NCBI RefSeq assembly: GCF_003334765.1
Contig: NZ_QOWT01000046.1
Origin: Escherichia coli
Lineage (GTDB): Bacteria > Pseudomonadota > Gammaproteobacteria > Enterobacterales > Enterobacteriaceae
Reading direction: 5' to 3' (one strand)
Length of the DNA: 23,492 nt
Shown: positions 12,811 through 12,949 of the stretch, piece by piece
Numbering within the stretch: position 1 is the first letter of the stretch
How the letters are laid out: every line of letters begins with the position of its first letter
The notes under the pieces: model-generated
Seen by the model: only the letters and a program-made list of their open reading frames with translations
Told to the model about the DNA's origin: nothing
The model's database searches: none
Position numbers and translations under genes: made by a program

Positions 12811-12949
12811 TTTGTGGTAAATGGGCGGCTGGTGGGTGTTAGGGGCACCCACCAGCCATCTGCTCATGCGTTGGGTTCACAAGCAAACCTCAGGCCCACT
12901 GCTTTGCGCAAAAGCAGAATGAGCCTATCAGAGACAGGCTTAATGATCC

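Follow-up and report, generated by a model that had tools for sequence, protein, structure and literature searches.

The promoter-like motif and the hairpin that stand in front of the DNA methylase gene of this Escherichia coli prophage constitute the 5' part of a strongly conserved folded leader and are not a leftover copy of the late promoter. Judging from sequence comparison and structural modelling, the hairpin (HP1) probably belongs, as one of several helices, to a conserved and structured leader of some 140 nt (12813-12949), which would set the dose of a toxic methylase by means of two mutually exclusive folds. The leader is conserved, is linked to one gene family, shows pairing statistics above those of controls with covariation in a second helix (HPb) and to some extent in HP1, and is absent from Rfam. 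Our best reading of the modelled structures is that of a cis-acting mRNA element that gates a toxic late gene and may use two exclusive folds.

The methylase leader and its distribution

The window, by which we mean the whole 23,492-nt stretch of DNA that was analysed, contains the following features around the leader:

11554-12375: Q-like protein (match to phrog_127/25523)
12383-12410, + strand: PR'-like late promoter region (TTGATT ... TGTGGTAAATTTG) after the Q-like gene, recognised from its sequence and containing the first copy of a repeated 10-mer
12458-12480, + strand: tR'-like intrinsic terminator (terminator scan), the left boundary of the module shared with Stx-type phages
12602-12799, + strand: small winged-helix-like ORF of 65 aa that usually lies next to the leader on its upstream side (phrog_331, E=1.4e-37)
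12786-12809, + strand: terminator-like hairpin GCCTTC-CGCAGT-GAAGGC followed by T6 (terminator scan), at the end of the small winged-helix-like ORF and just 5' of the leader
12813-12949, + strand: whole conserved leader of the methylase mRNA (homologue comparison, covariance model and RNA fold)
12813-12825, + strand: '-10-like' motif TGTGGTAAATGGG, the 5' edge of the leader (TGTG, 0-3 variable nt, then AAUGGGCGG)
12950-13999, + strand: M.EcoGII-family N6-adenine DNA methyltransferase, 349 aa (PHROG DNA methyltransferase, E about 1e-106)

We take 12383-12410 to be a putative late promoter by its likeness to lambda PR'. The methylase is 95% identical to the methyltransferase of phage 1720a-02, which has been named as very similar to M.EcoGII; M.EcoGII is toxic, and M.EcoGI and M.EcoGII are not expressed in the lysogen (PMC5778455).

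In the homologues that we compared, the leader always lies 5' of M.EcoGII-family methylase genes, and its length from TGTG through ATG is nearly constant (138-141 nt in nearly all of them). Leader and methylase occur together in 21 phage records, with which homology begins at query position 83/84, that is, at the tR'-like boundary. Of 5426 complete E. coli genomes, 2033 contain the leader, and at least 14 further Enterobacterales genera have it too. It precedes the methylase in Citrobacter, Salmonella, Klebsiella and Pantoea, and is also present in E. albertii, Mangrovibacter, Enterobacter, Kluyvera, Mixta and Kosakonia, as well as in Rosenbergiella, Buttiauxella, Trabulsiella and a soil MAG. 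Metagenomes and viral contigs supplied more than 100 additional distinct leader sequences. Conservation sets in exactly at TGTG in all genera, whatever sequence precedes it, and the leader occurs behind differing Q/PR' modules and differing upstream genes. In other genera, wherever the gene context could be recovered, lysis genes follow just downstream of the methylase, and an antiterminator gene precedes it at those loci whose upstream gene is known. In Sakai Sp15, the interval from Q to stx1 is without a methylase. Loci without the methylase retain the left arm of HP1 alone.

A covariance model of the leader matches 12813-12900 with 76.5 bits (E=3.5e-18), its sole match in the window. The Rfam scan of the window returned no family at gathering score (the best, P26, is on the minus strand with 24.2 bits against 36), and a scan of the Klebsiella version of the leader gave no match at all; a literature search for a described RNA motif at the methylase-leader locus found none. 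As to coding potential, a small ORF at 12821-12922 (MGGWWV...) was considered as a gene and rejected, because loop-length and T-insertion variants shift its frame and several haplotypes carry in-frame TGA or TAG at codons 4-5; the changes are non-synonymous, and the AUG alone is invariant among homologues.

The terminator-like hairpin ahead of the leader is not peculiar to the window. A predicted stem-loop of variable sequence, mostly ending 6-10 nt before TGTG, reaches -5 kcal/mol or lower in 99% of 121 distinct upstream sequences as compared to 70% of shuffles (mean -10.5 vs -6.4 kcal/mol), and this holds where the upstream gene differs. The leader lies behind such a hairpin and would probably be transcribed only within the Q-antiterminated late transcript.

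The repeated motif, the hairpin and its Chi octamers

The first-pass annotation had reported that the motif repeats the -10 and initial sequence of PR', with G at the last hexamer position, and that a perfect 11-bp stem without a U-tract follows. The repeat is borne out: TGTGGTAAATGGG at 12813-12825 corresponds to TGTGGTAAATTTG at 12398-12410, and the shared 10-mer TGTGGTAAAT is present at just these two sites when both strands of the window are scanned, a second exact copy being expected about 0.045 times (2 x 23492 / 4^10). By direct reading, the match grows to 15 nt (TGTGGTAA plus ATGGGCG) once 13 nt (ATTTGCTCTAACG) are dropped from PR'. The G is correctly placed as well, since the hexamer in the register of that annotation is TAAATG. 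The stem is indeed perfect, both GCTGGTGGGTG and CACCCACCAGC being present, but it is one pair longer than had been described (12 bp). It is followed directly by ATCTGCTCATG, so that there is no U-tract, and for this reason HP1 is not a terminator; the terminator scan did not call it as an intrinsic terminator, the 3' sequence being AUCUGCUCAUG. The parts of the hairpin are:

12827-12857, + strand: HP1, the hairpin of the first-pass annotation, with a 12-bp stem GGCUGGUGGGUG/CACCCACCAGCC and loop UUAGGGG
12828-12835, + strand: Chi octamer GCTGGTGG in the left arm of HP1, an exact match on the late-transcription strand
12849-12856, - strand: Chi octamer in the right arm of HP1, an exact match present in the perfect-palindrome allele only

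At the DNA level the arms are GGCTGGTGGGTG (12827-12838) and CACCCACCAGCC (12846-12857), separated by TTAGGGG. Perfect hairpins of at least 12 bp with loops of 3-12 nt occur at two loci in the window, 12827-12857 and 2793-2829, and the chance level is 0.017 hairpin calls per first-order Markov resample of the window, with any call at all in 1.3% of 300 resamples. The hairpin element ends up 93 nt 5' of the methylase start codon (12950), and related phages keep both motif and hairpin as the 5' part of the methylase leader.

With its double Chi, the perfect palindrome represents just one allelic form of an RNA helix that tolerates wobble. The plus-strand Chi is kept in 73 of the 98 distinct leaders and lost in the remaining 25 with pairing persisting, and the minus-strand copy is found in 13/98, being absent from the alleles CACTCACCAGC and CACCTGCCAGC that are common in E. 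coli. The window as a whole is rich in Chi (13 octamers, nine of them on the plus strand, vs 0.74 expected). The plus-strand Chi shares the polarity of the late genes and, as the gene for the small terminase subunit is found further right, at 21637, plus-strand octamers would face RecBCD entering from cos according to the rule given in PMC12315714. Chi enrichment in lambdoid phages without Rec modules has been documented (Zheng et al. 2025, PMC12315714; Bobay et al. 2013, PMC3784561). The prophage in the window is defective, and the enrichment could therefore also be chromosomal. The octamers in the arms are a real feature of the sequence, but they appear to be secondary.

Helices, covariation and a proposed two-fold model

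Beyond HP1, the predicted structure of the leader involves the following segments:

12861-12885, + strand: HPb, helix U-GCU..UG / CA..AGC-A around a hypervariable loop at 12869-12877 (RNAalifold)
12822-12826, + strand: 5' strand UGGGC of a candidate closing helix, Pa (RNAalifold, diverse set)
12894-12898, + strand: 3' strand GCCCA of Pa (RNAalifold)
12899-12917, + strand: HP2, CUGCUUU-GCGCA-AAAGCAG (RNA fold, E. coli alignment)
12874-12884, + strand: candidate anti-TIR strand with consensus AGGUCAcAAGC (conserved complementarity, fold prediction)
12938-12949, + strand: the 12 nt directly 5' of the methylase AUG (GCUUAAUGAUCC), complementary to 12874-12884

The RNA fold of 12811-12960 has an energy of -63.4 kcal/mol (z = -4.0). 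The main structure statistics come from 98 distinct leader sequences in an alignment (A4) that was fitted to the model structure and thus favours it. In this alignment, 97.6% of the cells are paired as compared to 95.2% in shuffles, none of 500 of which reach the observed value, and the covariation score is 0.110 vs 0.065 in shuffles (0/500), with slid controls at 0.013-0.085. The trend is the same in an ungapped MAFFT alignment. The number of pairs with changes on both sides was matched by 7 of 500 shuffles. Pairing in the leader is thus backed by covariation above controls, strongly for the closing pair of HPb and modestly for HP1.

The closing pair of HPb is C-G in 39, A-U in 31, U-A in 15 and U·G in 7 of the 98 sequences, and two leaders (L394 and L401) carry the fully compensatory GCCCGU/ACGGGC. 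By eye, N' (12885) shows no consistent covariation with the nucleotide before GCUU. HP1 keeps its pairing in 96.6% of cells, and 4 of its 12 pairs are changed on both sides; the pair beside the bulge is U-A in 43, U·G in 35, C-G in 5 and A-U in 2 sequences. The left arm consists of G and U only and the right arm is nearly all C and A (with one G), so that transitions in the right arm give G·U or U·G wobbles and transitions in the left arm break pairs. The observed pattern, in which the left arm is invariant and the right arm polymorphic, is that predicted for plus-strand RNA, and pairing is highest when HP1 is read as such (96.6%, vs 92.2% as minus-strand RNA and 90.4% with Watson-Crick pairs only). 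HP1 tolerates right-arm transitions through wobble, a 1-nt bulge and some compensatory changes; in Rosenbergiella, for example, AAGTG/CACTT stands in place of GGGTG/CACCC. One position of HP1 shows recurrent A·C mismatches (GGATG variants). The E. coli-only alignment (58 haplotypes, 92% identity) is too shallow for this purpose: changes in HP1 are one-sided wobbles, and no double-compensatory change in HP1 was found among these haplotypes.

Evidence for the other helices is of different kinds. The five pairs of Pa are essentially invariant, which makes covariation uninformative for this helix. The second pair of HP2 is U-A in 27, U·G in 29 and C-G in 1 of the E. coli sequences. Pairing of UGUG with CACA (12880-12883) was discarded, as HPb already makes use of CACA. 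Owing to a 1-nt indel between E. coli and other leader types in the 3' domain, HP3 and the 3' domain are poorly defined by RNAalifold on the MAFFT alignment. Since most leader pairs are invariant, their conservation is equally compatible with a DNA-level constraint or recent horizontal spread.

The methylase start region, GCUUAAUGAUCC, is without a Shine-Dalgarno sequence and is paired in the minimum-energy fold. Its candidate partner, the anti-TIR strand, overlaps HPb, and the two pairings are therefore mutually exclusive. Among 71 distinct sequence combinations, complementarity is kept in 90-100% at 9 of 10 positions, and the end pair is A-U in 31, G-C in 11, G·U in 8 and mismatched in 21, so that mismatches amount to 30% at the sole variable pair of this helix and its covariation is weak. 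A further pairing, AUGGGC (12821-12826) with GCUCAU (12862-12867), is seen in the single-sequence minimum-energy fold as an alternative to Pa; as a plain part of the hairpin it conflicts with the covarying HPb, and we kept it as an alternative fold only.

Based on these energy predictions and conserved complementarities, with the anti-TIR covariation being weak, we propose a two-fold model in which the leader would set the translation level of the toxic methylase by switching between two exclusive structures. In the minimum-energy fold B, HP1 would be lengthened by AUGGGC/GCUCAU, and 12874-12884 would pair with the 12 nt before the AUG, occluding the start region. In fold A, UGGGC/GCCCA and GCUCAUG/CACAAGC (HPb) would form and the start region would be free. 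HP1 might serve as a constant anchor helix in both, and the two folds are predicted to differ by 0-9 kcal/mol. That the leader acts at the RNA level, that it has two states and that translation is affected are all things we infer from these patterns. The earlier suggestion of a regulatory hairpin controlling the methylase is broadly in line with the evidence: HP1 is a helix of a conserved leader tightly linked to the start codon and as such a candidate regulator, but it does not act alone.

It is tempting to go further and to see in the leader an undescribed bistable translational switch, in which an OFF fold of HP1 plus AUGGGC/GCUCAU would mask the start until a trigger melts the base of HP1 and HPb frees the AUG. 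This more specific version of the model is a speculative one, to which we assign a rather low probability. One candidate trigger might be a ribosome starting at the invariant AUG at 12821, where the codons that follow (GGC GGC UGG UGG GUG) form the left arm of HP1. Another might be the methylase itself, binding its own A-rich leader; M.EcoGII-type methylase acts on RNA too.

Alternative readings and significance

Other explanations of the same element have to be weighed against a structured leader. The sequence TGTG..AAT could be a PR' vestige or a working methylase promoter, built as an extended -10 element plus a GGG discriminator, which would place the hairpin at or near the 5' end of its transcript. 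The match to the PR' -10 region (10/10, or 15/15 with one 13-nt gap) and the start of the conserved block at TGTG are in line with this, as is the fact that about half of the non-E. coli variants (TGTGAAAAT) have TGn and a hexamer that matches at 4/6 positions, including A at -11 and T at -7. However, TG is separated from the end of AAT by 0-3-nt indels. Among the variants GAAAAT, GGAAAT, TGAAAT, GTAAAT, GGTAAT and AAGAAT, only the first and the last combine A at -11 with T at -7, the other four having no A at -11, and the window hexamer is either TAAATG, without T at -7 (register of the first-pass annotation), or GTAAAT, without A at -11 (conserved register). Given the indels between TGTG and AATGGG and the mostly missing A at -11, the motif is not maintained as a sigma-70 -10 element. 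The sequence 5' of TGTG is unrelated between loci, and consequently there is no conserved -35; a promoter consensus scan of 12200-13100 gave 0 promoter-like sites. Moreover, the motif sits behind at least 4 different Q/PR' arrangements in E. coli phages. It follows a 273-aa, a 126-aa or another type of Q or no Q at all, and reads TGTGAAAATGGG, TGTGGAAATGGG, TGTGAAATGGG etc. in other genera, while a recombinant joining PR' to the second copy (GAATCTGTGGTAAATGGGCGG) had 0 matches in viral contigs. The silence of M.EcoGI and M.EcoGII in the lysogen (PMC5778455) likewise speaks against a constitutive promoter. The lambda PR'/qut late promoter (with a sigma-70-dependent promoter-proximal pause at a -10-like sequence and then GGG) is a related known system, as the motif shares TGTGGTAAAT and ATGGGCG with the PR' region of this phage. 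Yet, in contrast to PR'/qut, it is not adjacent to the Q gene, is without a -35, has no conserved hexamer, accompanies unrelated PR' types, appears as TGTGAAAATGGG in other genera and lies after a terminator, not before one. We regard a promoter in either form as very improbable; the vestigial duplicated late promoter of the first-pass annotation is not supported, its motif being the conserved 5' boundary of a leader that accompanies the methylase gene from locus to locus.

A DNA-level role could instead come from Chi. Here the left arm would be a hotspot in active orientation, retained through RecBCD for phage DNA protection and recombination, the right arm would supply a second Chi on the other strand in this allele, and the hairpin would be incidental. 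The exact octamer on both arms, the excess of Chi in the window, the plus-strand orientation that meets RecBCD from cos and the enrichment in lambdoid phages lacking Rec modules agree with such a role, and so do the nearly invariant left arm beside a variable right one and the junction variants, in which the left arm is retained and all sequence to its right is gone. Exact octamers on the top strand of the right-hand part of the genome are also what is seen in the Chi hotspots of lambdoid phages. However, the octamer is in this case part of a conserved RNA helix whose pairing outlasts the loss of Chi: pairing is still 96.6% with Chi absent from a quarter of the distinct leaders (25/98) and its minus-strand copy confined to 13, and Rosenbergiella and Enterobacter hormaechei without Chi keep the hairpin through compensatory or pair-improving changes. 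The most variable left-arm position is a T inside the octamer, the invariant block reaches well past it (TGTG..AAATGGGCGG, GTGTT), and the arm asymmetry is predicted equally by RNA wobble pairing. An inverted Chi pair forming a hairpin is not described in the consulted parts of PMC12315714 or PMC3784561. We consider Chi unlikely to be the reason for the element, and find equally unlikely a lone RNA hairpin that would act without any switch as an RNase III processing site, or as a 3'-exonuclease barrier, separating and stabilising the small-ORF and methylase parts of the transcript. With the AUGGGC/GCUCAU extension, HP1 would become a helix of about 20 bp with an asymmetric internal loop, a form reminiscent of the RNase III sites of phage T7. 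HP1 is intercistronic and, having no U-tract, is no terminator. The T7-type hairpins and the lambda sib and N-leader sites share several traits with it: a place between cistrons of a long phage transcript, a length of about 20 bp, an internal loop and the lack of a U-tract; the extended form here, however, competes with HPb, which is better supported by covariation, and processing leaves the other 90 nt of the leader, the covarying HPb and the fixed distance to the AUG unexplained. Least probable of all, in our estimate, is an operator, with the inverted repeat as the site of the upstream small winged-helix protein, which would then be a repressor or an activator of the methylase, much like an R-M controller protein. 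The 65-aa winged-helix-like ORF lies upstream in 321 of 371 loci, and HP1 is at the DNA level an inverted repeat of 12 bp with a 6-7-bp spacer; a small HTH-type gene beside a methyltransferase gene and a nearby inverted repeat are also found in C-protein/C-box control. Nonetheless, conservation of the leader is just as strong in the 50 loci that lack this ORF. The right half-site carries 1-nt insertions and multiple substitutions next to an invariant left one, which a symmetric dimer site would not tolerate, and Watson-Crick-only pairing, as expected of DNA symmetry, is lower than pairing with wobble (90.4% vs 96.6%). DNA binding has weak Pfam support (TrmB/MarR matches, best E=0.0027). Compared to C-protein systems, the protein is winged-helix-like and not Xre-type, its gene lies 5' of the repeat, the two half-sites differ and contain indels, the leader is also kept where the protein is missing, and no restriction gene is present.

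The structured leader that we favour is most similar to known cis-regulatory mRNA leaders, which occupy a fixed place 5' of one gene family across genera. Like translational attenuators and riboswitch-like 5' UTRs, it has conserved helices, some covariation and two possible exclusive pairings, and, as in riboswitch-like start occlusion, one candidate pairing covers the 12 nt before the AUG of a toxic product. It differs from riboswitch-like leaders in having no Rfam match and in sequence conservation far above that of typical riboswitch stems. At the same time, the case illustrates how a single genome can mislead when it shows a promoter look-alike and a 'perfect' hairpin.

Enzymes of the M.EcoGII type methylate adenine whatever the surrounding sequence; they are toxic to the host and serve widely as laboratory tools. 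The genes encoding them lie in the late operon of very common lambdoid prophages and, in many Stx phages, immediately 5' of the Shiga-toxin genes. With its conservation and structure, the leader of about 140 nt is an obvious candidate for silencing the methylase and for dosing it in the lytic phase. If the bistable switch were true, phage late-gene attenuators or autoregulators would gain a new class, one that more than one-third of complete E. coli genomes contain.

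The prophage region around the motif and hairpin

The window spans regulatory and late genes of a prophage of lambdoid, Stx-phage-like type, apparently defective, with nearly all head and tail genes lost. Its relevant features are as follows.

Features of the window
11554-12375: Q-like antiterminator, followed by the PR'-like region
12458-12480: tR'-like terminator
12602-12799: winged-helix-like ORF, 65 aa
12786-12809: another terminator-like hairpin, followed by T6
12950-13999: methyltransferase, 349 aa, downstream of the motif and hairpin
Downstream of the methyltransferase: three tRNAs, STnc100 copies, a large ORF (15274-17127), the lysis genes and the gene for the terminase small subunit

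The large ORF, which we take to be nanS-p-like, matches only phrog_143, of unknown function, in PHROGs. The segment 14049-15270 has the Stx-phage layout (methylase, tRNA-Met/Arg/Arg, large ORF 15274-17127), yet without stx genes, and STnc100 matches it three times, twice strongly (165 and 136 bits) and once weakly (30 bits). ORF 22115-22930 is a fusion of a large terminase subunit N-terminus (aa 9-86) with a tail fibre C-terminus (aa 87-271). The methyltransferase shares 95% identity with its counterpart in phage 1720a-02, an enzyme named as very similar to the non-specific adenine methyltransferase M.EcoGII (PMC5778455). M.EcoGII has 349 aa, is harmful when expressed constitutively and is silent in the lysogen (PMC5778455).

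The repeat of the late promoter reported in the first-pass annotation can be read directly from the sequence: TGTGGTAAATGGG at 12813-12825 and TGTGGTAAATTTG at 12398-12410. Their 10-mer TGTGGTAAAT has just these two copies on both strands of the window, the expectation for a second chance copy being about 0.045. Deleting 13 nt (ATTTGCTCTAACG) from the PR' copy lengthens the shared sequence to 15 nt (TGTGGTAA followed by ATGGGCG). The perfect stem is also there, one pair longer than annotated (GGCTGGTGGGTG at 12827-12838 with CACCCACCAGCC at 12846-12857, loop TTAGGGG), and it indeed lacks a U-tract, since ATCTGCTCATG follows directly. Two loci form a perfect hairpin with a stem of 12 bp or more, against a mean of 0.017 when the window was resampled 300 times under a first-order Markov model that preserves composition. 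The other one, at 2793-2829 (16 bp, TACCCATAGGTATTTA-AAAAG-TAAATACCTATGGGTA), lies just downstream of a repressor-like gene (2872-3291, - strand).

Conservation of the methylase leader

Related phages show conservation: from the tR'-like terminator onward, the window shares a block with 21 Stx2-type phage records at 91-95% identity, and the Q/PR' modules of these phages differ. Of 5426 complete E. coli genomes, 2033 contain the 181 bases around the motif and the hairpin (hereafter HP1), with 3515 sites in all, every one of which has a methyltransferase gene alongside. Among 171 E. coli loci fetched by two flanking anchors, the left arm of HP1 is near-invariant and the right arm comes in three principal forms: CACCCACCAGC (perfect, the window allele, roughly a third), CACTCACCAGC and CACCTGCCAGC; Stx2k-type phages carry CACCTGTCAGT. 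All differences between these right-arm alleles are transitions, after which a + strand RNA would still pair there, through G·U or U·G. In the phiP27 clade the motif is TGTGGTAATGGG, shorter by one A.

At some loci without the methylase and tRNAs, homology ends exactly past the left arm (…GCTGGTGGGTG|TGGTGGTTG…). This break, with the methylase/tRNA block absent, is seen in phage PhiR5_1 (L002, 2812-2900) and at least 15 further loci; L131 is a further case, and L136 combines the same junction with what looks like an IS2 end. The HP1 loop or Chi site thus marks a breakpoint of mosaics or deletions that recurs among these loci, with TGGTGG microhomology. In L147 (2014-2132), an E. coli-type leader, a 40-nt deletion between direct repeats CATCTGCT has removed HPb and the 3' strand of Pa, two proposed leader helices, and kept HP1 and a third, HP2 (12899-12917).

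Comparison with other genera is the decisive step of the analysis. Methylase homologues of 76-86% identity occur in Citrobacter, Salmonella, Klebsiella and Pantoea in unchanged gene order, and clearly the same element lies upstream of them. Scanning genomes with an anchor that excluded the motif, left arm and inner stem, and took in no more of the hairpin than the outer six right-arm bases, recovered the leader in E. albertii, Mangrovibacter, Enterobacter (two species), Kluyvera, Mixta, Kosakonia (two species), Rosenbergiella, Buttiauxella, Trabulsiella and a soil MAG; 3'-anchor scans added more than 100 distinct leader sequences. Conservation starts exactly at TGTG across genera, and TGTG through ATG spans 138-141 nt in nearly all leaders. 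A GATC (Dam) site at 12945-12948, 1 base before the methylase start codon, is kept in nearly all of them (CTGATCTATG / ATGATCCATG), Salmonella being an exception. In L172, L173 and L174 (Citrobacter, Salmonella) an opposite-strand HicA/HicB toxin-antitoxin pair adjoins the methylase cassette, on a side that differs by genome.

A predicted stem-loop precedes the leader in 121 distinct upstream sequences (12786-12809 in the window), with its end mostly 6-10 nt ahead of TGTG and with widely differing sequences (CCUCC/GGAGG, GCCGCC/GGCGGC, CUCGC/GCGGGG and others). In E. coli it makes a strong terminator; because its U-tract is poor in many other genera, it could belong to the RNA element, beyond a terminator alone.

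RNA structure and alternative readings

For a diverse leader set, RNAalifold proposed a three-way junction made of Pa, HP1 and HPb.

Helices of the proposed junction
Pa: UGGGC 12822-12826 with GCCCA 12894-12898 (RNAalifold)
HP1: 12827-12838 with 12846-12857 (the annotated hairpin, one arm of the proposed junction)
HPb: 12861-12868 with 12878-12885, enclosing hypervariable 12869-12877 (RNAalifold)

A covariance model of 42 ungapped sequences, whose sole match in the window is 12813-12900 (76.5 bits), was used to align 98 distinct leaders. In this alignment, which is fitted to the model structure and comes from a closely related family with most pairs invariant, 97.6% of cells are paired versus 95.2% after shuffling (0/500), and the covariation score is 0.110 versus 0.065 (0/500), with slid controls at 0.013-0.085. 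An ungapped MAFFT alignment agrees in trend. HP1 is 96.6% paired, with both-side changes at 4 of 12 pairs. Its bulge-adjacent pair is U-A 43, U·G 35, C-G 5 and A-U 2 times; the closing pair of HPb is C-G 39, A-U 31, U-A 15 and U·G 7 times. Two sequences have GCCCGU/CACGGGC in place of GCUCAU/CACAAGC, Rosenbergiella HP1 has AAGTG/CACTT instead of GGGTG/CACCC, and most non-E. coli leaders have a 13-nt right arm with a 1-nt bulge. Pa never varies, so covariation is uninformative about it, and the 3' domain is poorly resolved. HP1 pairing is 96.6% as + strand RNA, 92.2% as - strand RNA and 90.4% as Watson-Crick-only DNA symmetry. The left arm is entirely G/U and the right arm nearly all C/A, so that right-arm transitions give wobble and left-arm ones break pairs; arm composition alone thus predicts an invariant left and a polymorphic right arm.

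Within 12821-12844 and its homologues, an AUG at 12821, invariant in all leaders, opens a mini-ORF (MGGWWV...), and its codons make up the left HP1 arm. A conserved peptide was rejected, since neither the length nor the sequence is kept and stops come early in some variants; the AUG could be a ribosome entry point.

The motif itself could be a sigma-70 -10 element, a working promoter or a relic of PR'. This is very unlikely, and the comparison lends no support to the proposed vestigial duplicated late promoter. Across genera the consensus is TGTG, 0-3 variable bases and AAATGGGCGG, so the spacing from TG to the hexamer end carries indels; the hexamers before GGGCGG (GAAAAT, GGAAAT, TGAAAT, GTAAAT, GGTAAT, AAGAAT) often lack A at -11, no -35 is conserved among loci, and the motif is present regardless of Q type. 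Neither a promoter consensus scan of 12200-13100 nor a search of viral contigs for a junction recombinant between PR' and the second copy found a site or a recombinant, respectively, and a constitutive promoter also fits poorly with M.EcoGI/II being silent in lysogens (PMC5778455). A weak or conditional promoter at the motif is possible. Very unlikely, too, is HP1 as an operator for the winged-helix protein: its half-sites are asymmetric, with indels, and 50 of 371 loci carry the leader behind another upstream gene.

Each HP1 arm contains a Chi octamer (12828-12835, +; 12849-12856, -), and the window has 13 Chi sites versus 0.74 expected, 9 on the + strand, spanning 3917-18785. An overlapping palindromic pair, CCACCAGCTGGTGG (13642-13655, both strands, 2 bases common), lies inside the methylase CDS. 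According to PMC12315714, Chi is enriched in lambdoid phages without Rec modules and oriented toward RecBCD from the right end, which the count and orientation in the window fit; alternatively, a cryptic prophage could be gaining host-like Chi density. Nonetheless, a Chi-only DNA element with an incidental hairpin is improbable. The + strand Chi is retained in 73 of 98 distinct leaders and the - strand one in 13, and the T inside Chi is the most variable left-arm position. Because the helix persists where Chi is lost, Chi is treated as a real property of the window allele, not as the hairpin's reason. The perfect palindrome might be no more than one of the alleles of a quasi-palindrome, and quasi-palindromes are known to be corrected by template switching. 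HP1 also seems unlikely to work alone as an RNase III site or as a stabilising hairpin.

A candidate translational control element

Sequence comparison establishes the conservation of the leader, its linkage to the methylase and its helices; action at the RNA level, a switch and a switch trigger are inferred. The regulatory hairpin suggested earlier holds in outline, HP1 lying within a conserved methylase leader, but it is incomplete, HP1 being one part. Rfam scans of the window and a Klebsiella homologue gave no family at threshold for the leader, and literature searches found no description of it. Among known kinds of element it is best classed with the structured cis-acting mRNA leaders.

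Direct reading of the window and homologous leaders finds no Shine-Dalgarno sequence before the methylase AUG. The 12 nt before it (12938-12949) are complementary to 12874-12884 (the anti-TIR strand), which overlaps HPb. In fold B, the minimum-energy fold, HP1 is extended by AUGGGC/GCUCAU and the pre-AUG segment pairs with the anti-TIR strand, HP2 being nested inside; fold A, with Pa, HP1 and HPb, would leave the start region unpaired. The two are predicted to lie 0-9 kcal/mol apart in five species. Among 71 distinct combinations the complementarity is 90-100% kept at 9 of 10 positions, the tenth being A-U 31, G-C 11, G·U 8 and mismatched 21 times. Given the two alternative folds and this conserved complementarity, we propose a translation-limiting two-state leader, in which HP1 would be the constant anchor and the structured leader would lower translation of a toxic late gene, the methylase.
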